From the NCBI GenBank assembly GCA_963737545.1, contig CAVTTH010000006.1, forward strand, positions 119,538 to 183,537: a stretch of 64,000 nt of DNA, read 5' to 3'. The notes under the pieces were generated by a model. That model saw only the letters and a program-made list of their open reading frames with translations, made no database searches and was not told where the DNA came from. Of this stretch, positions 2,330 to 53,002 are shown piece after piece. The translations under genes were made by a program, and so were the position numbers. The stretch's first letter is position 1. Each line of letters begins with the position of its first letter. This DNA comes from an uncultured Verrucomicrobiae bacterium (GTDB lineage: Bacteria > Verrucomicrobiota > Verrucomicrobiia > Chthoniobacterales > UBA10450).

Positions 2330-2842
2330 ATGAACGCCGATGTCCTTAGATCTTTGCAGGCGCCCATCAAAGAGCAGTATCGAGAACGTCCGGCCACGGC
2401 GTTGATCACGCTCCGAGCCGAGGGCCGCATCGGTGAAGGGATCACGTGTAAAATAGGGACCGGTAAGGCGCTTGTCGAAGCAGGGCTTCATCCGGCGACC
2501 GGAGGCGACGGACTGAGCGCGTGTTCGGGCGATATGCTTCTGGAGGCGTTGGTGGCCTGTGCAGGTGTTACGTTAGGCGCGGTGGCGACTGCGTTGGGCG
2601 TTCAACTTCGAGATGCAAGGATTCACGCTGAGGGCGATCTCGATTTTCGCGGAACGCTGGGAGTCTCGAAGGAAGTTCCGGTAGGGTTTCGACGGATCCG
2701 GCTGCGTTTCGATCTCGATACCGACGCGAGCGAAGAACAACTAACAACTTTGCTTCGGCTGACCGAACGCTATTGCGTCGTTTACCAGACGCTCAGTCAT
2801 CCTCCCGAGATCGAGGTTGCCCGTTCCATCGCGCCGCGGTGA
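2330..2842 (+). CDS. OsmC family protein
   Basis: 170-aa ORF of OsmC/Ohr-like size and pattern (GGDGLSACSGDMLLEALVACAG..., C-terminal TERYCVVYQTL). It starts 5 nt after the upstream gene. Confidence 0.75.
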   Translation: MNADVLRSLQAPIKEQYRERPATALITLRAEGRIGEGITCKIGTGKALVEAGLHPATGGDGLSACSGDMLLEALVACAGVTLGAVATALGVQLRDARIHAEGDLDFRGTLGVSKEVPVGFRRIRLRFDLDTDASEEQLTTLLRLTERYCVVYQTLSHPPEIEVARSIAPR

Positions 2843-2881
2843 ATTTGCAGTCACGCATCTTTGTTATTACTTACAAGTCGT

Positions 2882-3730
2882 ATGCCCACTTACATGGACA
2901 TTCACGAGATTCCTGGTGGTGTGAGTGCGGAAGAAATCGCCAAGGCCCACGCGCACGATCTCGAGGTGCAGGAGAAATACGGCGTTAACTACCACAGGTA
3001 TTGGATCAACGAGAAAGCGGGCAAGGTATTTTGCCTTTGCCACGCGCCCAGCGCCGAAGCCGCGAACCAGGTTCATCGTGAAGCGCACGGCCAGGTCGCG
3101 GTAAAGATCATTCCGGTAGAGTCCGATGTGGCTGACTTGTTCCTTGGTGGCAGCGAAGTAAATGCCGAAGGAGCAGCGCTGCTTCCCGGCGATACCGATG
3201 CGCGAGATCCCGGAATCCGGACCGTCGTCTTCACGGATATCGTGGGTTCTACGAATCTTACTCAAGCGATGGGAGATGAAGCGGCGATGGCTCTGATTGA
3301 ACTTCACGATCGCATCGTTCGTGGTGCTTTGACCGCTTTGGGCGGTCGCGAAATCAAGCACACCGGAGACGGCATCATGGCGTCTTTCGTTTCGGCAGCA
3401 GCGGCGGTCAAATGCGCAAGTCGAATTCAGCGCGAGGTGATCAGTCACGGCCAAAAGAACAGCGATCGGTCAATTCAAATTCGTGTGGGTGTCGCAGCGG
3501 GAGAGCCCGTCGAGCACCACGACGATTTATTTGGATGCACCGTGCAGCTCGCTGCCCGTCTCTGTTCTCACGCGCAGCCCGAGCAAATTCTGGTGTCGAA
3601 TGTGGTGGCGGAGTTGTGCATCGGAAAAAGTCTGACATTTCGCGCGCTCGGTGAAGTTTCCCTCAAAGGCTTTGACCAACCGGTGCCGGTTCACGCGGTC
3701 GAATGGCCAGCGGAACGTGTCGCGTCTTAG
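2882..3730 (+). CDS. DUF4242-like N-terminal domain fused to a class III adenylate/guanylate cyclase catalytic domain
   Basis: The N-terminus MPTYMDIHEIPGGVSAEEIAKAHAHDLEVQEKYGVNYHRYWINEKAGKVFCLCHAPSAEAA matches the DUF4242 pattern. The C-terminal half has cyclase motifs: VVFTDIVGST, KHTGDGIMASF, RVGVAAGEPV. Start chosen at the internal ATG (2882). Confidence 0.8.
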   Translation: MPTYMDIHEIPGGVSAEEIAKAHAHDLEVQEKYGVNYHRYWINEKAGKVFCLCHAPSAEAANQVHREAHGQVAVKIIPVESDVADLFLGGSEVNAEGAALLPGDTDARDPGIRTVVFTDIVGSTNLTQAMGDEAAMALIELHDRIVRGALTALGGREIKHTGDGIMASFVSAAAAVKCASRIQREVISHGQKNSDRSIQIRVGVAAGEPVEHHDDLFGCTVQLAARLCSHAQPEQILVSNVVAELCIGKSLTFRALGEVSLKGFDQPVPVHAVEWPAERVAS

Positions 3731-43130: not shown

Positions 43131-43271
43131 CTATCCCCGCAGGATTCGCCGCGCGCTGCAACTGCCGGCGCCGCTTTGATCGGTGATGAGCAGCTTAGAG
43201 TAGCCGACGATGTCGATGAACAACACGTGCCCGATCTCGAATTTTTCGTCTAAAGAAGGCTCGGTCGGCAT
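43131..43271 (-). pseudogene. Cyclase 5' stub (first ~30 codons), then unrelated sequence
   Basis: MPTEPSLDEKFEIGHVLFIDIVGYSKLLIT, then DQSGAGSCSARRILRG*. It is preceded by the same promoter-like module as the intact cyclase genes. Confidence 0.65.
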
Positions 43272-43365
43272 CAGAGTTGGTTACTATCGTAAGACTCGCG
43301 ATTTAACGAGCCTATTCCGATTCACGAAATCGTGCAGAACAGATTCGACTGGGCTCACCACAAGC

Positions 43366-43447
43366 AACCGCGGATTACGCAGATAACGCGGATTAAGAGT
43401 TAAACACAGGCTGCGATAATCCGTGTAAATCCGCGAAATCCGCGGTT
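43366..43447. repeat. ~82-nt imperfect hairpin repeat (CGCGGATTA-type arms), copy 1
   Basis: The sequence is aaccgcggattacgcagataacgcggatta...taatccgtgtaaatccgcgaaatccgcggtt. The arms are reverse complements of each other. Confidence 0.8.
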
Positions 43448-43648
43448 CGAATCTTGTTATGAATGTCGCTCCGTTTCGGCTCCGCGAAGAAATTCAACTT
43501 CACGTCTGATGGCCGCTCGGTCGGCATCAGAGTTGGTCACTATCGTAAGACTCGCAATTTAACGAGCAACTTGTTTCGCCTCAAAATGTCGTCAAGAACA
43601 ACCACTGGTTACCCAGCGCGGCTCCGCCCCAAGCGCAACCGAAGCATT

Positions 43649-44138
43649 AACCGCGGATTTCGCGAATTAACGCGGATTGTTTCGGAATCCACGTCTTCAC
43701 AGAATAATTTCATCTCTCGTTTCGGTGCCGGATTTTACACTGCGCTTCCACTGAAGACTCGCGTGTTTGAAGTTGACTAGCAACGCCACTTCCAATCCGC
43801 TGATTGCAAGGTAGCCGAGCATTTGTGCGAAGTGATCTTTGTTGAAGTCATCCACCACTTTCGGATCCACGATGACAAGATCGTCCACGATCACGTCGGG
43901 CGTCATTCTCCCGATGAAATGGCCATCGTAATGAACGGAGAAACTCTTCTGCTGTTCTGCGCGATGACCGCGCTTTGCCAGTTCGATGATGAGCGCATTT
44001 TCATAGAGCTTTTCGTCGAGCCCGGGCCTGAGCGTGCCATGAACTTTCATGGCCGCGGCGATGATCTCCCGGCTCAGGTCTTCATGAATTAGATGGGTCA
44101 TTTTTTGAAATCCGCGTTAATCGGCGTAATCCGCGGTT
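43649..44138. mobile_element. Candidate inverted-repeat-bounded unit carrying the GxxExxY gene
   Basis: The left arm at 43649-43678 is aaccgcggatttcgcgaattaacgcggatt. The reverse complement of the right arm (44108-44138) is aaccgcggattacgccgattaacgcggattt. The arms lie 18 nt from the ORF stop and 6 nt from its start, and belong to the same sequence family as the solo hairpin arms. Confidence 0.45.
43697..44101 (-). CDS. GxxExxY protein (PD-(D/E)XK nuclease-fold family)
   Basis: 134 aa. It has PGLDEKLYENAL (the G-x-x-E-x-x-Y motif), then IVDDLVIVDPKVV....AQMLGYLAISGLEVALLVNF. Confidence 0.85.
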   Translation of the reverse strand: MTHLIHEDLSREIIAAAMKVHGTLRPGLDEKLYENALIIELAKRGHRAEQQKSFSVHYDGHFIGRMTPDVIVDDLVIVDPKVVDDFNKDHFAQMLGYLAISGLEVALLVNFKHASLQWKRSVKSGTETRDEIIL

Positions 44139-44231
44139 CAGATCGGGGTATAGCTCGGTCGGCAAGAGATCGCTTATTATAATATGACCTGCAATTTAAC
44201 GAGCCTGTTTCGAGCTAAGATACTTCAGGAA

Positions 44232-44312
44232 TAACCACGGATTACGCGGATGACGCGGATTAAGAGTTAAACACAGGCTTCAGTAATCCGTGAAATCCGC
44301 GTAATCCGTGGT
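44232..44312. repeat. ~82-nt hairpin repeat, copy 2
   Basis: The sequence is aaccacggattacgcggatgacgcggattaagagttaaacacaggcttcagtaatccgtgaaatccgcgtaatccgtggtt, followed by cagatcttattatata as in copy 3. Confidence 0.8.
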
Positions 44313-44369
44313 TCAGATCTTATTATATAGACGTTGCGCTGCTTCAACTCGGAGGAGAATGAGGGCGGT

Positions 44370-46461
44370 TCATTGTGGCGGCGTCACCTTGAACTCGATC
44401 TTGGCCAGTTGCTCCGGCGCTTTGCCGATCTTGCGCAGGAACGGCAGCCAGCGCGGGTCAGCGTGGATCTTGTCGAACAGGTTTTCCGCCACGATCTCGG
44501 CGAGGCCGCCGTCGCCGTACTCGACCGCCTTGTCGAGCCATTCAAACGCTTTATCGGCTTCGCCGCGGTAGGCATAGACGCCGGCGATGTTGGAGGGCGC
44601 GTCCTTCTCGTACTTCGCGATCAACGCCGCGAGCGCAACGTCGGAGTCGGCTTTACGCCCGAGCGCGTGGTACGCCATTGGCAGGCCGATCATCTTGTAG
44701 ATCTCGCTCGTCTCCTGCTCGATCTCCGCCAGCGCGCCCTTCGCATCGCCCTTGAGCAGCAGCGCTACGCCGAGCTGGCAGTGGGCGCCTCCATTGCTTG
44801 GGCTCAAGCTCAGCACGGTGCGGAACGACGCGATCGCCGCGTCGAGTTGGCCGGCCATGCGCTGGTGGTAGCCCAGGTTGAAGAGCGTCGTCACGTTCAC
44901 CGGATCGCGGCGGACGGCGGCCTCCTCGAGCGCCAGCGCCTCGTCGAGGCGGCCTAGCGATACGAGCAGGGTAGCGCTGTTGCCCAGCACATTTAGATCC
45001 GCCGGATCGAGCGCCAGCGCGTGCTTGAAGTGCTCCGCGGCACCGGCGAGGTCGTTATCGCTATCCGCGATATAGCCGAGGCTGGCATGAGCCGGTGCGT
45101 AGTCCGGATCGATCGCCAGCGCCTTCGTCGCTGCCTCGCGCGCTTGGGCGTACCCATCCTTGCTGGACAGGAGGCCTTGGCCTGTCTCGTTGTCGAAGTT
45201 GTGAGCCAGCCCGATCCATGCCGGGGCGTAGCGTGGATCGATCGCCAGCACCTTGCGGTAAAGCGCGTCGGATTGCTGGAATGCCTCGGCTTTGAACTGC
45301 CGTCCGAGCTGCACGGCCTGCAGGTAGAGCACGTAGGCTTCGGGATCAGTCGTGCGCGCCTTCGGCGCCGCGCCAAGCAGTGTGACCTTTAACTGCTTGA
45401 CCACGTCGGCCGCGATCTCATCCTGGATCGCGAAGATGTCGTCGAGCTTGCGGTCGTAGGTCTGCGACCACAGGTGCGTGTCGGTACCGGCCTTGATCAA
45501 CTGCGCCGTGATCCGGACCGAGTTGCCCGCCTTGCGCACCGAACCTTCCAGCACATGCGCCACGTGCAGCGTGCGCGCGATCTCCGGGATCGCAACCTCT
45601 TTGCCTTTGAACGAGAACGACGAGGTACGCGCCGTCACCTGCAACTGCGGAATCTTCGCGAGCAGGTTCAGCAGTTCCTCCGAGATGCCGTCGGAGAAGT
45701 ACTCGTTCGCCTTGTCCTCGCTCATGTTGACGAACGGCAGCACGGCGATGCTTTTTTCGGGAATGGCAGCGCCTTTAGTCCAGGTTCGCTGCGCGAAATA
45801 ATAAACTCCGACCGCCAGGAGTGTCGCGGCCAGCACGAGGGCGACGATCGATCCGATACTGCGCCGCTTCAGTTTTTGTTTCGTCTGTTGAAACTTTTGC
45901 GGCAACGCGGCGTTGCCCAGCGGCTCGGCGTAGAGATTGACCAAATGGAGCCGGACGCCATGCTTGACCTCGCATTCCCCCAGGTCGCGTAAACGCGACG
46001 CCCATTGCCGGGAAGCCACCAGATCATCGGCCACGTGCTGGGAGAGAAGAATGTGCCCGGCGTCGCCGCAATCCATCACCCGTTGCGCCATGTTGATGCC
46101 GGCCCCGGCGATATTGGTGCGTCCACTCACGTCGGTCACCTCGCTGACCGGACCGCTGTGAATGCCCATGCGCACCGGAAGTTCCGGATGTTTCTGAAGC
46201 GCTTCCGCAACTTCGAGCGCGCAGCGGGCCGGTTCTTCCGCGCTATGATGGAAGACCAGCGCCATCCCATCGCCGGTCGGTAGCCTAACGAGTTGTTCGT
46301 CGGTCGCTTCGCGGACCGGCGTGGTCGCGAGCACGATCTGAGTGAGCTGGTTCAGCCGCTCCTTCTGTTCTTCAAGCAGAAGCTTCGAGTAACCGACGAT
46401 GTCGATGAAGAGGACGTGCCCGATCTCGAAATTTCGAATCGGAGGATTGCTCGGCCGGCAT
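44370..46461 (-). pseudogene. Class III cyclase-TM-TolB-like-TPR protein with an apparent +1 frameshift about 10 codons into the gene (otherwise intact)
   Basis: The ATG at 46461 gives MPAEQSSDSKF, then goes out of frame. The shifted frame reads (N)FEIGHVLFIDIVGYSKLLLEEQKERLNQLTQIV and joins the listed 654-aa ORF. The sequence gaaattt at about 46428-46434 has one base more than the KFEIG reading requires. The length of 2092 nt is not divisible by 3. This could be an assembly error. Confidence 0.6.
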
Positions 46462-46674: not shown

Positions 46675-48831
46675 TTAGGGGGCGCTCGCTTTCAATTGGT
46701 CATCGCCCAGGCCCATCTTGTGGAGGAATGCGTTCCAGCGCGGGTCATCTTGAATATTCGTTAGGAGCGGATCTTTGCGCAAACTGGCCAGACCCGGGTC
46801 GCGTTGCTGGCGCGCCCGCTCCAACCATTCGAAAGCCTTATCCTTGTCCCTGCGATACGCGTAAACCTCGGCGATCTGGTATGCCGCCGTTTCCGCAAAA
46901 TCCCTGGTCAACTGCGCGAGCGCGGCGTCTGCCTCCGGGATTTTTTTCTGGCCCCAGCGTGCGCACGCCACAATCAAAAGCCGCGCCCAATCACCCGCGT
47001 CAGCTTGCGCCGCGTTTGCTGCCTCCTCGAATTTGTTCTCGAGCAGATACGACAACCCGAGACCGGCGTGCGCCCAGGGCGCCGCTGGATTCAACTCCAC
47101 CACGCGCGGAAATTCTGCGCGCGCTTCTGCGAATCGTTTCGTCGCCGCCAGGTTAAAAGCGAGAAATGCTCGTGCCTGTGGGTTGACCGGGTCCAGGTCG
47201 ACTGCTTTGCGATAGAGCTCGATTGCTCGATCCATGTTTCCGCGTGCTATTTCGAGGTTGCCCGCGGCGATCACAATGTTCGGATCTGCCGGCGCCAGCG
47301 CCAATGCCTTGCTCAACGTTTGAGCTGCCCCGTTCCAGTTAAAATCGAAATTCGTCTCGATCGACCCGCGGGCGAGTAACGCCTCCGGCAAGTTAGGCTC
47401 AATGGAGAGCGCCCGCGTCACTGCGTCACGCGCACTCGACAAATGCGCCTCGAAAGTCTTTTGTCCGCCCTCGGTCGCAAACGCGGCAAGCCAGCCATTC
47501 GTTCCCGCGACTCCGGCCCATGCCAGCGCGAACCCGGGGTCCAACTCCGTCGCGCGTTGGTAGGCAGCTAAAGCTTCGCGCGCACTTTTTTCCGAATGGC
47601 GATTTTCATAAAAGCGGCCCTGCAGATACAATTGATGCGCTTCCACATTTTTCGTCCCGCCTTTCTCCGCCGCCTGCACTTCCGCTTGAATTTTCTGTTT
47701 GTCGGCTGAACCCGCCGTGCCCCCGGTCAACCGATCGCGCACTTGCGCCACGATCGTCTCCGCGAGTTCGCTCTGAACGGCGAACACGTCTTTTAAATCA
47801 CGGGTAAAATTCTCCGACCATACTTCCTCGCCCGTGTCAGCGTGCGTGAGCCGGGCCGCGATCCGCACCGCTTCGCCGGATTTGCGCACGCTTCCTTCGA
47901 CCAGATAGGCCACGCCGAGTTTTTGTCCGATCTCCTGTGCCGTCGCATTCTTGCCTTTGAACGAAAAGGCCGAAGTCCGAGCGGCAACGTGCAAGCCGGG
48001 AATTTTTTGCAGCACAGTCAGCAACTCCTCGCTGATACCGTCTGAAAAATATTCGCTCCCCTTGTCGTCGCTCAGGTTAGCGAAGGCGAGCACGGCAACG
48101 GACTTTTGATCCGGCGCGTTGGCGGGCGCGGCGGGCAGCGCAGCTGCGGGCGCGCCTGTCGCGGGCTGGGGATTTCGGCCGGAGCGCTGCATCCACCACC
48201 AGCCGCCGAGCAAAGCAACCAGCAAGACGGCTGCGACTACCGCGACGAGAGGTGATTTTTTCGAGACATGTGTTTGGCCGGGTCCGGCCTTCACCCCTGC
48301 CTCCCACGGCAGCACGATCCGGAACAAATCCATCGGCAGTTTGATATTCTTCAAATCGGCCGAGCCGAATTTTTCGAATCTGGCTTCGAGCGCGTTGCGA
48401 ATCTGCCGTTCCACGTCCATCGAGACACAGATGCCGCCGGCGCCGGCCAGTTGTTCGATCCGTGAAGCGATGTTGACGCCGTCGCCATAGACGTCGCCCC
48501 CGCGATGAACGACGTCGCCGATGTGAATACCGATCTTGACCTGGATCCGCCGTTCGGGTGTGACGTCTGTGTTGCGCTTCGCCAGGGTGCGTTGAATTTC
48601 GATGGCGCATTGCGCCGCTTCCAGAGCGCTGCCGAATTCGACCAGAAAAGCGTCGCCGATGGTTTTGATCTCCGCGCCGTGAAAGCGCGGAAAAATTTCG
48701 CGCAACAGAGCCCGATGTTCTTCGAGCAACTCGAGCGCGAGTTTGTCGTCGCGCTGGGCCATCGCGCTGTAGCCCACCATGTCGGTGAACATGATGGCGG
48801 CGAGCTTGCGCTGTTCGGTTTCGGTGCTCAT
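46675..48831 (-). CDS. Class III adenylate/guanylate cyclase-TM-TolB-like-TPR protein
   Basis: From MSTETEQRKLAAIMFTDMVGYS. It has IKTIGDAFLVEF, KIGIHIGDVV, a TM helix LVAVVAAVLLVALLGGWWW, the module KSVAVLAFANLSDDKGSEYFSDGISEEL, then TPRs. Confidence 0.85.
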   Translation of the reverse strand: MSTETEQRKLAAIMFTDMVGYSAMAQRDDKLALELLEEHRALLREIFPRFHGAEIKTIGDAFLVEFGSALEAAQCAIEIQRTLAKRNTDVTPERRIQVKIGIHIGDVVHRGGDVYGDGVNIASRIEQLAGAGGICVSMDVERQIRNALEARFEKFGSADLKNIKLPMDLFRIVLPWEAGVKAGPGQTHVSKKSPLVAVVAAVLLVALLGGWWWMQRSGRNPQPATGAPAAALPAAPANAPDQKSVAVLAFANLSDDKGSEYFSDGISEELLTVLQKIPGLHVAARTSAFSFKGKNATAQEIGQKLGVAYLVEGSVRKSGEAVRIAARLTHADTGEEVWSENFTRDLKDVFAVQSELAETIVAQVRDRLTGGTAGSADKQKIQAEVQAAEKGGTKNVEAHQLYLQGRFYENRHSEKSAREALAAYQRATELDPGFALAWAGVAGTNGWLAAFATEGGQKTFEAHLSSARDAVTRALSIEPNLPEALLARGSIETNFDFNWNGAAQTLSKALALAPADPNIVIAAGNLEIARGNMDRAIELYRKAVDLDPVNPQARAFLAFNLAATKRFAEARAEFPRVVELNPAAPWAHAGLGLSYLLENKFEEAANAAQADAGDWARLLIVACARWGQKKIPEADAALAQLTRDFAETAAYQIAEVYAYRRDKDKAFEWLERARQQRDPGLASLRKDPLLTNIQDDPRWNAFLHKMGLGDDQLKASAP

Positions 48832-48993
48832 GGCGATGCTCTTGCCACACAGTTGAGGACGACGCAATCATCGCATCACTCCAGGTCGCAAGCCCCACTT
48901 CCGCAAACTGCGAGGGGGAGCGCCTTGAAAATTTTGGGTTCGGCGCTCGAATTGGTATTGACGCCTAACGGCGTTTCTGCCCGAATCGCCGCC

Positions 48994-49538: not shown

Positions 49539-52500
49539 TCATTGATCAAGCCCGACCCTTTTCAGCAGCGATTGAAAACGCGGCTCGTTGCGCACACTAT
49601 CGTAAATCGGGTCAACCTTTAGATACCAAACGGCGCTCTCCTGGTCGTCGTAAGATTTTTCCAGCCAATCCAAAGCCTTCTCCTTTTCGCCAAGTCCCAG
49701 ATGGATGTCAGCTAACGCTGTCGAACTGACGTATTGGTGTTTTGCCACCTCTTCGAGTTCGCGCAAGATCTGCTCGGCTTTCGGTCGATTTTCAGAAATG
49801 GCATAAGCGTAACCGAGGAGTCCTTGATACCACGCGCCGGCAATCATGATTTTAGATTTTTGAAATTCCGCGATTGCGCCCGCCGTGTCGCCTTTCCACA
49901 GGAGGCAGCAGCCTAACAAATGATGGGCGAGCGTCGAAGCGGGATCCAGTTCCAGTGTCTTCTTGATTTGGACAAGTGCATCGTCATATCGACGTGCGTG
50001 ATACAGATAGTAAGCCAGGGCAGCTTGAAAGAACGAATTCAGCGGATCGAGTTCGATCGCCTTTTTGTCTTTCGCAATCGCTTCGTCCAATCGACCAAGC
50101 CCACCCAGAAACCACGCATATATTTCATAGGCCCAGGCCAGATTAGGATTTAGTTCGATGGCGCGGTCGAATTCAACCTGGGCGTTGTGCCAATCAAAAG
50201 CCCCGGCCAGTGCGCAGGCGAGGGAAAGATGCGCTTCCGCCAGCTCCGGTTCGAGCTGAATCGCTCTTTCCGCGAGCTCCTTCTCTTTAGCCAGCGCTTC
50301 TTTGCTCGGCATCACTACTCCTCCCATGTAGGCGTAGGTGTCGGCGAGGCCGCAATAGGCCAGCGCATAGTTGGGATCGAGCTTCAGCGCCTGCTCGTAA
50401 TAGCGGATCGAGCTGGTCCAGCCGGCTTCGCTGTATTTGCCAAGTTCATAACGCCCCAGCAAATAGAGGCGATGAGCCTCCGGGTTCTCAGTCGGCTTTT
50501 TCGCCAAAGCACGCGCCGCTTCGACACCTAATTTGATTTGCAGGGCTTCGACAACGTGCTGGGCCACGTTGCTCTGAAAGGTAAAAATATCTCTTACGTC
50601 ACCATCGTAATCTTCCGACCAGAGATGGTAACCATCATTCACGTTGATGAGTTGAGCGGTGACGCGCAGCTTCTCTCCGGCTTTGCGGATGCTTCCTTCC
50701 AACACCGTATCGACATGCAGTTGATCCCCGATTTGCCGGAAAATATCCGTTTCGGTTTTGCCTTTGAAAGCGAAACAAGATGTTCGTCCCGGCACACGCA
50801 GCCCTGGCACCCTGGCCAGCGCGTTAATTAGTTCCTCGGTCATCCCGTCGCTCAAATACTCGTCGTGTTTGTCTGCGCTCATGTTCACGAACGGCAACAC
50901 GGCGACAGATTTTGCTCGATCTGCTCTGACCGCGACCGTCTCGCTTCGCTTTGGCGAGTCGGACGATCCGTTCTCGGGAATCGAGAGCCCTGCTTTGCGC
51001 AGCCCATCGAGGATGGGCTCCATCAGGCCGCTCGCGAAGTGCCAGGTCCCGACGTTCGACCGTGCATGCGCAGCAAACTCCGGATCGAGTGCCAAAAGAT
51101 CCCGGATCGCGGCGGCGGCTTCGGCGCGCCGTCCAAGGTGGCCGCAGGCCGAGGCCATGACAAGGAATGGCCAGAACAGCCCGGGGACGTCGACCCGGTT
51201 CGCACACGCGAGAGCTTGCTCGTACTCGCCGTTGTGGAAATGTTGCCAAAGGGGAGCGAAATGCATCCAGCCCGCATGATTGGCATTGAGTTCCATCGCG
51301 CGCCTAACGATCGCGGTGCCGCGCTCGAACTCGCCCGTATGCACGATCTGCAATCCCAAAATTCCAAGCGCGTCGGTGTTGAGTGGATTGAGCGCCATCG
51401 CGCGCTCGGTGGCCGGACCAAACGCCGCGAGGTCCTGGCGGAAAAAGTGTGTCTGCGCCAGCGCTACCATCGCGAACTGGTTCGCCCGATCCAATTCGAC
51501 TCCGCGACGGGCCGCAGTGAGGGCCCGATCGAGAGAGGTCGCGTCAGCCCCGGGGAAACCAAACGCGTATTCGTCGACGTAGATCTGGGCGAGACAGGCC
51601 CATAAGTCCGAAGGCCGATTGTCCGACTTTGCCCCGCGTTCGAGCCGGCTTCTTAGCGCCCCATGAGATGCAGGTGTAATCTGCTCCCGGTAGGCGAAAT
51701 ATTGGAATTGCCACTCCGCCGGAGTGAGATCGCTGTCATTTTTCTGCCTGGCTGCGTCCCGAAGTGAATGAACCAGGACACCGTAGCTGTCAGCAACCGT
51801 CGCGACGATGCGGGCGGCGACGTCGTCCTGCGCCGCAAAGATTGATAATGTTTGGAGGTCCCGGTTATAGGTCTCGGCCCAGAGCTGCGCTCCCGTCTTG
51901 GTGTCAACGAGCTGTGCGCTTACGCGAATACCGGAGCCTCCCTTGCGGATGCTTCCTTGCAACACATAACGCGCGCCGAGTTTGTCACCGCCCGCCCTCT
52001 CGCTCGTGACCACTGAGAGGTAACCGAACCGCGAAAGCCCGGTCGTGATTTCCTCGCCAAGACCGTTGGCAAACGACCCCATCTCCGCGTCACCGGAGCT
52101 TTTGAAAGGAAGCACGGCGATCCACGGCTCTTCTCCGTGCCCCGCCGCGGCGGGCTTCGTTTGCGATTTTGTCTTACGAAATTTCTCCGGCACTTCCGGA
52201 TTGCCAGCGTCCTCACCGTAAAGATTCAGGATCGAGATGCGCAATCCGTGTTTGACTTCGCATTCGCCGAGTTCATGCAGAAGCGAGCGCCATTGTGCGT
52301 ACTGCTCCAAGTCATCGGCGACACGTTTGGAAACAAGGATATGTCCGGCCTCGCCGCAATCCATCACGCGCTGAGCGAGGTTGATGCCGGCACCGGCGAT
52401 GTTGGCCTGTTCGTTCAAATCAGTGACTTGATTGACCGGGCCACTATGAATCCCCATCCGCACTCGAAGCTCCGGATGACTCTTTAGCGCTTTGCTGATT

Positions 52501-52754
52501 TCCAGCGCGCACAAAACTGGCGCTTCCAGACTGTTTCGAAAAACAAGCGCCCCGCCGTCGCCCGTCGGTAAACGCATCAACTTCCCTTGACCTTCGGCGA
52601 GACGGAACTGCTCGGTTCCTCGGACAATCTCACGTAACGTTTGGATCTGCTCGCTTTGCTCGTTAATCAGCAATTTCGAGTAACCGACGATGTCGATGAA
52701 CAAGACGTGGCCGATCTCGAACTTTACATCTGAGGAACGCTCGGTCGGTGGCAT
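49539..52754 (-). CDS. Large soluble class III cyclase with two TolB-like modules and two TPR blocks (no TM helix seen)
   Basis: 1071 aa. It has MPPTERSSDVKFEIGHVLFIDIVGYSKLLI, then PWIAVLPFKSSGD..., later KSVAVLPFVNMSADKHDEYLSDGMTEEL, with TPR-like repeats after each. I found no hydrophobic stretch of about 20 aa. Confidence 0.85.
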   Translation of the reverse strand: MPPTERSSDVKFEIGHVLFIDIVGYSKLLINEQSEQIQTLREIVRGTEQFRLAEGQGKLMRLPTGDGGALVFRNSLEAPVLCALEISKALKSHPELRVRMGIHSGPVNQVTDLNEQANIAGAGINLAQRVMDCGEAGHILVSKRVADDLEQYAQWRSLLHELGECEVKHGLRISILNLYGEDAGNPEVPEKFRKTKSQTKPAAAGHGEEPWIAVLPFKSSGDAEMGSFANGLGEEITTGLSRFGYLSVVTSERAGGDKLGARYVLQGSIRKGGSGIRVSAQLVDTKTGAQLWAETYNRDLQTLSIFAAQDDVAARIVATVADSYGVLVHSLRDAARQKNDSDLTPAEWQFQYFAYREQITPASHGALRSRLERGAKSDNRPSDLWACLAQIYVDEYAFGFPGADATSLDRALTAARRGVELDRANQFAMVALAQTHFFRQDLAAFGPATERAMALNPLNTDALGILGLQIVHTGEFERGTAIVRRAMELNANHAGWMHFAPLWQHFHNGEYEQALACANRVDVPGLFWPFLVMASACGHLGRRAEAAAAIRDLLALDPEFAAHARSNVGTWHFASGLMEPILDGLRKAGLSIPENGSSDSPKRSETVAVRADRAKSVAVLPFVNMSADKHDEYLSDGMTEELINALARVPGLRVPGRTSCFAFKGKTETDIFRQIGDQLHVDTVLEGSIRKAGEKLRVTAQLINVNDGYHLWSEDYDGDVRDIFTFQSNVAQHVVEALQIKLGVEAARALAKKPTENPEAHRLYLLGRYELGKYSEAGWTSSIRYYEQALKLDPNYALAYCGLADTYAYMGGVVMPSKEALAKEKELAERAIQLEPELAEAHLSLACALAGAFDWHNAQVEFDRAIELNPNLAWAYEIYAWFLGGLGRLDEAIAKDKKAIELDPLNSFFQAALAYYLYHARRYDDALVQIKKTLELDPASTLAHHLLGCCLLWKGDTAGAIAEFQKSKIMIAGAWYQGLLGYAYAISENRPKAEQILRELEEVAKHQYVSSTALADIHLGLGEKEKALDWLEKSYDDQESAVWYLKVDPIYDSVRNEPRFQSLLKRVGLDQ

Positions 52755-52792
52755 GAGACCGCTTATTATAATATGACCTGCAATTTAACGAG
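52755..52792 (-). promoter_or_regulatory. Conserved promoter-like module CTCGTT-N18-TAATAA-N8-ATG
   Basis: The minus strand reads ctcgtt aaattgcaggtcatatta taataa gcggtctc ATG. A near-identical orphan copy lies at 44164-44212. Confidence 0.35.
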
Positions 52793-52815
52793 CCTGTTTC
52801 GATATTGAGAAGAAC

Positions 52816-52898
52816 AACCGCGGATTACGCGGATGACGCGGATTAAGAGTTAAAGCAAATGCTGCGGTAATCCGTGTAAATCCGCGTAATCCGCGGTT
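52816..52898. repeat. ~82-nt hairpin repeat, copy 3
   Basis: The sequence is aaccgcggattacgcggatgacgcggattaagagttaaagcaaatgctgcggtaatccgtgtaaatccgcgtaatccgcggtt, followed by cagatcttattatata. Confidence 0.8.
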
Positions 52899-53002
52899 CA
52901 GATCTTATTATATAAACATTGTGCCGCTCAATTCGGCGAAGAATTGCTTGCCGCGCCGTAGACTTGATGCCGGTCCGGCTCGAACCGAAGGCGGGTCGAT
53001 CT

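Follow-up and report, generated by a model that had tools for sequence, protein, structure and literature searches.

A gene of the GxxExxY family (TIGR04256/PF13366), enclosed by inverted repeats (arms) that are comprised of tandem 7-nt words, was characterized in a 64,000-nucleotide stretch from an uncultured Verrucomicrobiae bacterium (GenBank assembly GCA_963737545.1, contig CAVTTH010000006.1, positions 119,538 to 183,537; the whole stretch is hereafter called the window). Comparison with relatives shows that arms and gene are inherited as one unit, evidently under selection, which is found at many unrelated sites. The same sequence comparisons show that the words in the arms co-vary with the clade of the encoded protein.

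Organization and recurrence of the GxxExxY cassette

The whole cassette, consisting of an arm, the GxxExxY gene and a second arm, extends over 43649..44138 on the minus strand (inverted repeat I1). Its gene, 43697..44101 (-), is the only one of the family in the window and codes for 134 amino acids (aa) with a minimal PD-(D/E)XK nuclease fold. A distance of 430 nt separates the two 30-nt arms (43649-43678 and 44109-44138), whose complementarity is 90%. In the sense of the gene, the 5' arm (44108..44138, minus strand) reads AACCGCGGATTACGCCGATTAACGCGGATTT and ends 6 nt ahead of the ATG, the distance to the start being 6-7 nt with either 44108 or 44109 as the counting point for the arm. The 3' arm (43649..43678, minus strand) reads AATCCGCGTTAATTCGCGAAATCCGCGGTT on the gene strand and begins 18 nt past the stop codon. 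Arms are built of AACC and three tandem 7-nt words, CGCGGAT or CACGGAT (CRCGGAT), with 2-3 A/T bases between them. In the 5' arm, the AACC terminus is accompanied by three CGCSGAT words spaced 9-10 nt, and the word period of the arms, also 9-10 nt, is about one helical turn. A 19-mer representing the arm core has 8 copies in the window, compared with 0.02 expected, a count that was reached in none of 100 shuffles. These copies correspond to the two arms of the gene unit and to both arms in each of three solo hairpins. A preliminary description, made from the letters of the window, had placed the open reading frame (ORF) between mutually reverse-complementary arms and had assigned the same arms to solo hairpins; all features of the gene unit were found at the coordinates noted there, and the hairpins were confirmed at 43366-43447, 44233-44313 and 52816-52898.

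Relatives of the gene were collected in a protein-guided scan of metagenome contigs, which gave 79 loci with 81 genes at 60-98% identity. For each gene, the best inverted repeat between 110 nt upstream and 110 nt downstream was taken, and the 95th percentile of control ORFs was used as the threshold. Of the 77 genes compared, 65 (84%) surpass it (Mann-Whitney p=1.9e-24), and most of the unbracketed genes are located at contig ends or have misplaced start codons. An unbiased scan of the ~1.3 Mb of fetched DNA, comprising all 3575 ORFs of 80-260 aa, detected tight bracketing in 79, of which 68 belong to the GxxExxY family. The preliminary description had asked whether other genes of the family are bracketed in the same way, and this is so for 65 of the 77 relatives. 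The broader proposal, linking a widespread GxxExxY family to a specific palindromic element, is strongly supported and general, as shown by both counts, together with the retention of arms at unrelated sites, the selection on arms and the correspondence between words and proteins presented below.

Among the remaining bracketed ORFs are a GIY-YIG gene and an IS200-like gene, and the repeats around both are unrelated. The former, on the minus strand of L118 (1461-1761), codes for a 99-aa GIY-YIG nuclease (PF01541, 1.6e-15) and is bracketed by gaggaatctgtttaaacag / ctgtttaaatagattcctc; it represents another small nuclease in a hairpin-type cassette, with an inverted repeat unrelated to the arms studied here. 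The latter is a weak IS200-like Y1 transposase ORF in L043 (minus strand, 1971-2439; PF01797, 1e-4), with GC-rich hairpins similar to repetitive extragenic palindromic (REP) sequences on either side. It would be a conventional pair of a REP-associated tyrosine transposase (RAYT) and its REPs, residing in the same genome as arms with AACC and words.

The distribution of arms was addressed by scanning species-representative genomes with the 19-mer, and at least 120 stretches were taken as 8-kb loci. The matches listed fall in Verrucomicrobiota, Planctomycetota, Auribacterota, Kiritimatiellia, KSB1, Acidobacteriota and a few others. About 70 matches are expected by chance for the 19-mer alone. 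Among the matches listed, 92 of 132 extend into the third word, as opposed to 0.8% by chance, and 70 are paired with an inverted copy; on these grounds at least 99 of the 120 listed loci are genuine. Solo hairpins, whose median length is 78 nt, make up the majority of listed matches. Among the 120 loci listed, no ORF family other than GxxExxY is repeatedly found beside the arms, and no other recurrent cargo was found there in CRCGGAT arms. A genome-wide search for the arms had been proposed in the preliminary description; at the listed loci, this family is the sole recurrent neighbour, and a gene of the family accompanies the arms at 7 of 120.

Arms without a gene also occur as stacks in the same orientation. 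In planctomycete loci L004 (2200-2560), L049 (2820-3100) and L093 (minus strand, about 2170, 4113 and 5204), single arms with differing words (CGCGGAT, CACAGAG, CACGAAT, CACTGAT, GACAGGAT) follow one another with no gene between them, often upstream of ordinary genes.

Relatives differ in the genomic context of the cassette. Genes 99% identical to that of the window are found in L001 and L002 in the same context, which is shared by L124 as well. In L003, the gene (88% identity) is part of an operon for purine catabolism, where its neighbours are a transthyretin-like gene and allantoicase; the arms and their distances from the gene are as in the window. Kept in an unrelated operon, the arms travel with the gene. 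The L003 context is repeated in relatives down to about 61% identity (L125, L132, L133, L134, L137 and L156), so a cassette can stay at one site for a long time. Protein identities of 88-99% apply to the unit in L001, L002 and L124 and, in the other context, in L003, L125, L132-134 and L137. L083 (Opitutaceae), with a related purine operon, is empty at the junction where L003 and six others hold the cassette, and where two genes overlap in L003, it has a solo hairpin separating them. These differences identify both cassettes and solo hairpins as lineage-specific insertions, and they provide the presence/absence comparison of orthologous loci that had been proposed as a check. A presumed structural polymorphism downstream of the P0223 gene was rejected, as it turned out to be a mere difference in gene calling.

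Altogether, 71 usable flanks of the relatives represent 43 distinct upstream contexts. The unit composed of an arm, 5/6 nt, ATG, the remainder of the gene, 18 nt past the stop codon and the second arm recurs at many unrelated sites. Of the two alternatives in the preliminary description, a unit carrying the gene as cargo is preferred for this reason, while insertion of the gene into a pre-existing local palindrome fits less well. Arrangements among 79 classifiable genes are diverse: the gene is inside the arms in 29 cases, between two whole hairpins in 13, next to arms of the same orientation in 14, and accompanied by partial or other words in 23.

Constraint on arms and clade-specific words

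Cassette pairs with 55-80% protein identity are only 28-30% identical at 4-fold synonymous sites, which are saturated, while their arms are 85-90% identical. The 5' arm of the window follows the same pattern, being 88-91% identical to arms of cassettes with saturated synonymous sites. This comparison shows that arms evolve more slowly than the protein and are under strong purifying selection. The protein itself is under purifying selection, with nonsynonymous divergence (dN) of about 0.16 and saturated synonymous divergence (dS).

The R position within the word is equal in both arms of 54 of 72 hairpins, compared with 36 expected. In the spacers, complementary positions amount to 30 of 72 versus 27 by chance, and there is no excess that would indicate covariation. 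Mismatches between bracketing arms that are compatible with G.U pairing number 76 in the sense and 112 in the antisense direction, along with 257 transversions, without an excess on the coding strand. Selection for an RNA stem is thus unsupported by both the wobble and the spacer covariation test. These patterns show that constraint acts on the words and not on continuous base-pairing. Hairpin flanks read TT|AACC...GGTT|AAAA. In 76 non-redundant solo hairpins, we detected a target-site duplication of 2 nt in two cases, and one of 3-4 nt in none. Constraint on words, absence of a wobble signal, polarity of the flanks and lack of duplication together point to sequence-specific recognition of the words, and they are at odds with a fully paired RNA stem, with a terminator and with the end of a classical transposon.

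A divergent clade of 127-aa proteins, 35-41% identical to the window protein, has arms built of AACC and CACGAAT words. In this clade, the stop codon of the upstream gene overlaps AACC, the start codon is within the arm, and the next gene begins 5 nt past GGTT. Such junctions are seen, for instance, in L203 (cdsA|cassette|dxr) and in L207 (MFS|cassette|msrB). Further words shared by both arms of a cassette are CACTGAT, CACAGAT, CAAGAT and GACAGGAT. Protein identity correlates with the sharing of arm words (r=0.36), a value reached in 0 of 500 permutations. Members from Fusobacteria and Bacteroidota (35-39% identity, plasmid matches) are flanked by tandem words of the ATCCnnn type in direct orientation. 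A reading of TTATCCGTG-type words as DnaA boxes was considered and dropped, as the CACA part of the box is absent.

Solo hairpins and duplications in the window

Solo hairpin 1 (43366..43447) has the same arms as the cassette and a loop of ~21 nt, and its predicted single-stranded DNA fold has a free energy of -23.5 kcal/mol (z -6.2). Corresponding values are -29.9 kcal/mol (z -9.6) for solo hairpin 2 (44233..44313) and -32.6 kcal/mol (z -8.5) for solo hairpin 3 (52816..52898). Conserved bulges are present in the solo hairpins. Hairpin 2 carries AACCACGG / CCGTGGTT in its two arms, a change matched on both sides. No match to the hairpins was obtained with Rfam 15 covariance models, and the only hit elsewhere in the region was a chance miRNA match (E=0.21).

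The window cassette is situated among paralogous genes for adenylate/guanylate cyclases with TPR domains, all on the minus strand (44370..46334, 46675..48867 and 49539..52754). The last of these codes for 1071 aa, and solo hairpin 3 is located 62 nt upstream of its start. Direct repeats D2, D3 and D5 and blastn comparison disclosed that, next to each hairpin in the window, the 5' region of an adenylate-cyclase paralog is present as a copy. Three such copies, all on the minus strand, were delimited. X3 (43240..43320) comprises upstream sequence followed by ATG CCG ACC GAG..., as seen in D2, D3 and D5, in blastn to 52680-52911 and in the alignment, and it is host sequence duplicated together with the hairpins. 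X2 (43496..43576) was recognized by direct repeats and blastn, and X1 (44153..44213), between solo hairpin 2 and the cassette, by repeats, blastn and alignment.

Alignment with flanks revealed that homology among the three solo hairpins continues beyond the arms, for ~65 nt on the left side and for ~45 nt on the right. As these flanks are shared, the hairpins were copied within a module of ~200 nt that includes the cyclase 5' regions. By this evidence, the solo hairpins of the window multiplied by segmental duplication, and not by independent transposition. The preliminary description had interpreted them as derivatives similar to miniature inverted-repeat transposable elements (MITEs). That interpretation is contradicted for the window copies by the shared ~65- and ~45-nt flanks, and the label finds no support in solo hairpins elsewhere, given the scarcity of target-site duplications (2 nt in 2 of 76, 3-4 nt in 0 of 76). 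The observation that CAGATC follows the right arm is correct for the gene unit (44139-44144) and for two solo copies (starting at 44314 and 52899), the third having CGAATC. This hexamer is part of the co-duplicated flank and not clearly part of the element.

Two truncated remnants of cyclase genes were also observed among the hairpin modules, at 43131-43271 (-) and 43393-43527 (-). They start with MPTEPSLDEKFEIGHVLFIDIVGYSKLL... and MPTERPSDVKLNF..., stop after 44-46 codons, and indicate local rearrangement. In the 99%-related strains, a hairpin equivalent to window 44233-44313 is found at L001 9737-9868 and L002 2088-2203. Its right arm has an extra insertion of ~52 nt (cctgtcgcgtcgtagccttggcgaaggcggatccgcagcctgcccgccgcggcggg) in place of 6 nt of the window version.

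Duplication of neighbouring host sequence is not limited to the window. Direct duplications of 50-115 nt flank 8 of 49 cassettes, compared with 1 of 114 control ORFs (Fisher p=3e-4). Besides the cyclase fragments of the window (43240-43320, 43496-43576, 44153-44213), they include a ComM-like 3' end in L127, L128 and L135, with copies at 2701-2844 and 3504-3569 in L128 and at 563-638 and 1208-1283 in L135. They could stem from crossing-over of an unequal kind between arms, from a circle that integrated together with host DNA, or from template switching induced by the palindrome.

The encoded protein, related systems and a candidate mechanism

PF13366 (PDDEXK_3; 8.6e-34, 116.8 bits, cut-off 22) and TIGR04256 (GxxExxY; 1.9e-36, 124.9 bits, cut-off 35) are the only family models matched by the window protein. 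Residues G27-L-D-E30-K-L-Y33, E40, P68-D69 and D79-P-K81 are invariant or nearly so in two alignments covering both clades, and the predicted PD-(D/E)XK catalytic site is intact. An AlphaFold2 model (predicted local distance difference test score, pLDDT, 88; predicted template modelling score, pTM, 0.82) contains the PD-(D/E)XK core. In the fold search, the nearest PDB structure was Cas4 SSO0001 (E=7.6e-4, template modelling score, TM, 0.54), followed by lambda-type exonucleases and, lower in the list, by restriction-endonuclease-like proteins, tRNA-splicing endonucleases and Hjc. According to the model, the window protein is a minimal, generic PD-(D/E)XK nuclease domain.

Neither a sequence search of PDB nor one of viral contigs detected a relative of the window protein, and look-up by exact sequence gave no record for this protein or for P0001. 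PADLOC and PHROGs models gave no match, and the plasmid search gave two distant matches only. The search of representative proteins placed 8149 clusters at 50% identity in the GxxExxY family (E<=1e-3). Proteins of ~250-290 aa with two tandem GxxExxY domains were also observed (e.g. P0363, P0394, P0401 and P0420); such fusions suggest a dimeric working unit. Steczkiewicz 2012 classes the function of the family as 'Unknown'. The few papers that name GxxExxY, PF13366 or TIGR04256 are silent on function and flanking repeats, and in the searchable literature we found neither a paper with the arm sequences nor a description of a cassette formed by the gene and its arms.

In our preferred reading, the unit is a nuclease cassette of a selfish kind, accompanied by non-autonomous hairpins; RAYT/REPIN systems and the ORF-bearing intervening sequences (IVS) of 23S rRNA are similar to it. 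REPINs are REP doublets that form hairpins and are associated with RAYTs (PMC3116915, PMC3733652, PMC3479197). As in these systems, a nuclease-type gene has inverted copies of a short repeat on its two sides, hairpins of this repeat that lack a gene are dispersed elsewhere, the repeat sequence is specific to the lineage of the associated enzyme, target-site duplication is lacking, and long-term vertical inheritance goes along with rare movement. The differences are in the fold, PD-(D/E)XK instead of the HUH-Y1 (IS200-like) transposase, and in the arms, which are not palindromic REPs but AACC with three direct words and without the GTAG/CGTC tag (PMC3733652). In addition, GxxExxY genes are multi-copy and diverse, in accordance with the number of clusters given above, whereas RAYT is typically present in one copy per genome.

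In the IVS of Coxiella, a 28-bp terminal inverted-repeat stem closes a loop that holds a small ORF, and three tandem GACAGAT heptamers stand just before the start codon; RNase III removes this IVS from the transcript (PMC4990558). IVSs of Coxiella and Leptospira share with the cassette a size of ~430-490 nt, a terminal stem of ~28-30 bp around an ORF of ~120-130 aa, and tandem short words directly upstream of the start codon; they have long been suspected to be selfish or mobile, with an ORF without known function (PMC4990558). Unlike them, the GxxExxY cassette resides between protein-coding genes and not in 23S helices 9, 25 or 45, its cargo has a nuclease fold instead of a four-helix bundle (PF05635), and its words have a period of 9-10 nt with spacers while the heptamers are contiguous. 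Its sequence signatures also do not favour an RNA stem, showing neither wobble excess nor spacer complementarity.

Genes of the PF05635 family were retrieved with a family consensus, the hits being annotated PF05635/PF22296, and four loci were examined. At three of the four, the four-helix-bundle gene (PF05635/bAvd-like, 'S23p') is located between co-oriented housekeeping genes and is bracketed by inverted arrays of tandem ~7-nt words (L217 1370-1930, L224 1370-2000 and L227 1400-1910). The words are GGGGCTA x4 / TAGTCCC, of the GGGGTAA type and of the CAGGTAC type, and the arrays match the tandem GACAGAT heptamers of the Coxiella IVS. The architecture in which a small ORF is set between inverted word arrays is thus wider than the GxxExxY cassette, which forms one of its branches.

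Resemblance to two other classes is more limited. Homing endonuclease genes are free-standing or intron-borne, and some are of the PD-(D/E)XK type, such as I-Ssp6803I. They too are small nuclease genes with no other function in view, found at many sites with presence/absence polymorphism, and empty versions of the site, represented here by the solo hairpins, could act as targets. The cassette differs in having no intron or intein, in carrying its own repeated arms, and in that these are placed at unrelated loci and not in one conserved target gene. Terminal inverted repeats around a single gene and short gene-less derivatives are reminiscent of MITEs and insertion sequences, but target-site duplication is lacking, as is a transposase of the DDE or another recognised type, and the word-repeat arms are atypical. 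A classical MITE was rejected for want of the duplication, its terminal inverted repeats notwithstanding. An intrinsic terminator was rejected as well, because TT-hairpin-AAAA has the reverse polarity on either strand, and a terminator scan gave nothing convincing.

In the mechanism we propose, the nuclease encoded by a selfish cassette would recognise its own arms, cut there or at an extruded hairpin, and promote copying, a reading to which we give about even credence. The arms would be sequence-specific recognition sites, most likely for the encoded nuclease, which probably works as a dimer or higher oligomer. Nicking or cutting by the nuclease would take place at or near the AACC/GGTT boundaries; alternatively, its substrate could be a hairpin or cruciform into which the arms are able to fold. 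Cleavage may then lead to copying of the cassette into new intergenic sites via recombination-dependent repair. Solo hairpins would represent these arms without cargo, as non-autonomous copies or as relics, and those of the window would have been further amplified by segmental duplication along with the cyclase 5' regions. A more far-reaching proposition, which we regard as possible though rather doubtful, is that GxxExxY proteins are enzymes of an unrecognised, phylum-spanning class of mobile cassettes. A minimal Cas4/RecB-like PD-(D/E)XK nuclease would then recognise iterated 7-nt words in its own inverted arms, cut at these arms and drive the copying of cassettes and hairpins, with ORF-bearing 23S IVSs as a sister branch.

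Several observations weigh against the selfish nuclease cassette. The structural neighbours of the protein are generic for the fold (TM about 0.54), and its putative binding or cutting of the arms, like the movement of the cassette, is inferred from sequence data. Four-helix-bundle genes, which do not code for nucleases, occur in an analogous setting of inverted tandem words at three of four loci, and a cargo-encoded nuclease is therefore not required for such architecture in general. One insertion site is kept across relatives at 61-88% identity, meaning that movement is rare. At the listed arm loci, a GxxExxY gene within the fetched 8 kb is confined to the 7 of 120 mentioned above. Coexistence of several arrangements is not predicted by one simple mechanism, short target-site duplications are lacking, and the long duplications of host sequence in the flanks are not accounted for.

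An element acting at the RNA level would have its arm stem cut by RNase III in the host transcript, with the ORF excised as in 23S IVS and the arms insulating or expressing a selfish gene. The design of the Coxiella IVS, with its stem, loop ORF, tandem heptamers and RNase III excision (PMC4990558), speaks for it, as does the bracketing of IVS-family four-helix-bundle genes by inverted word arrays outside rRNA too. The arms abut start and stop codons and leave no space for a separate promoter, the upstream stop codon and the start of the next gene are within a few nt of the arms, and co-orientation with neighbours is mildly favoured (32:17). We nonetheless consider this explanation unlikely. 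RNase III needs double-stranded RNA only, so the 85-90% conservation of arms across phyla and the clade-specific words would go unexplained, and the strand distribution of mismatches and the chance level of spacer complementarity give it no support. Solo hairpins and single arms are maintained where no ORF is present, roughly one neighbour in three is oppositely oriented, and a location in rRNA was rejected because a motif scan of 217 loci revealed no cassette inside an rRNA gene. Similarly low is the probability we assign to an independent repeat family, moved or maintained by some other factor, with GxxExxY genes as passengers or preferential inserters and their nuclease directed to a different target. 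It would agree with the lack of an adjacent GxxExxY gene in more than 90% of listed arm matches, the gene-less planctomycete stacks of single arms with differing words, the same kind of bracketing around non-nuclease four-helix-bundle genes, and the occasional position of the gene between whole hairpins and not inside one. It is at odds with arm words that track protein clades, with GxxExxY as the sole recurrent arm neighbour among the loci listed, and with conserved distances from arm to start and from arm to stop across unrelated sites; moreover, no recurrent integrase, RAYT or other candidate was found in the examined loci.

Integron-like cassettes, in which the hairpins would be attC-type sites and the genes would be moved by an integron integrase, were judged very improbable. 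The attC consensus is RYYYAAC...GTTRRRY, and hairpins of 51-168 nt that start with AAC, end with GTT and have T-rich/A-rich flanks and conserved bulges are loosely similar to it. The order hairpin-gene-hairpin, with stop codons overlapping the next hairpin, also looks like a cassette array. Integron cassettes are, however, highly diverse, and here the cargo is essentially one protein family, most commonly placed inside a hairpin. The elements are scattered singly, in at least 43 contexts and in housekeeping operons, not in arrays beside an integrase, and three-word arms with sequence conservation across phyla are unlike attC. The chance that local duplication of a repeat simply left the gene between two of the copies is practically negligible. 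Although the window hairpins do belong to a segmentally duplicated module, such coincidence is refuted by the bracketing of 84% of 77 independent relatives and by different words in divergent clades.

Under the selfish nuclease cassette, each GxxExxY (TIGR04256/PF13366) member gains a candidate DNA partner in its bracketing arms, whose words differ by clade. Binding and cleavage specificity become directly testable, with natural specificity variants in hand, and the proteins could yield compact sequence-specific nucleases. The cassettes account for small genes wedged in housekeeping operons (cdsA|dxr, HIUase|allantoicase) of Planctomycetes-Verrucomicrobia-Chlamydiae (PVC) bacteria and others, as well as for a widespread family of ~80-nt hairpins. 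Their architecture matches that of 23S rRNA intervening sequences, whose origin has been in question for ~30 years. In annotation, arms could help to define start codons and pseudogenes.

Some loci combine more than one element. Two GxxExxY cassettes are found within 2-3 kb of each other in L188 (1190-1619 and 2994-3390), and likewise in L199 (2976-3372 and 5929-6301), where they belong to different clades and have the words CGCGGAT and GACAGGAT. In L114 (minus-strand coordinates 2679-3300), a GxxExxY pseudogene with an in-frame stop still has a hairpin before it, and a second arm type with CGCAAAG-like words is located upstream of the pseudogene.

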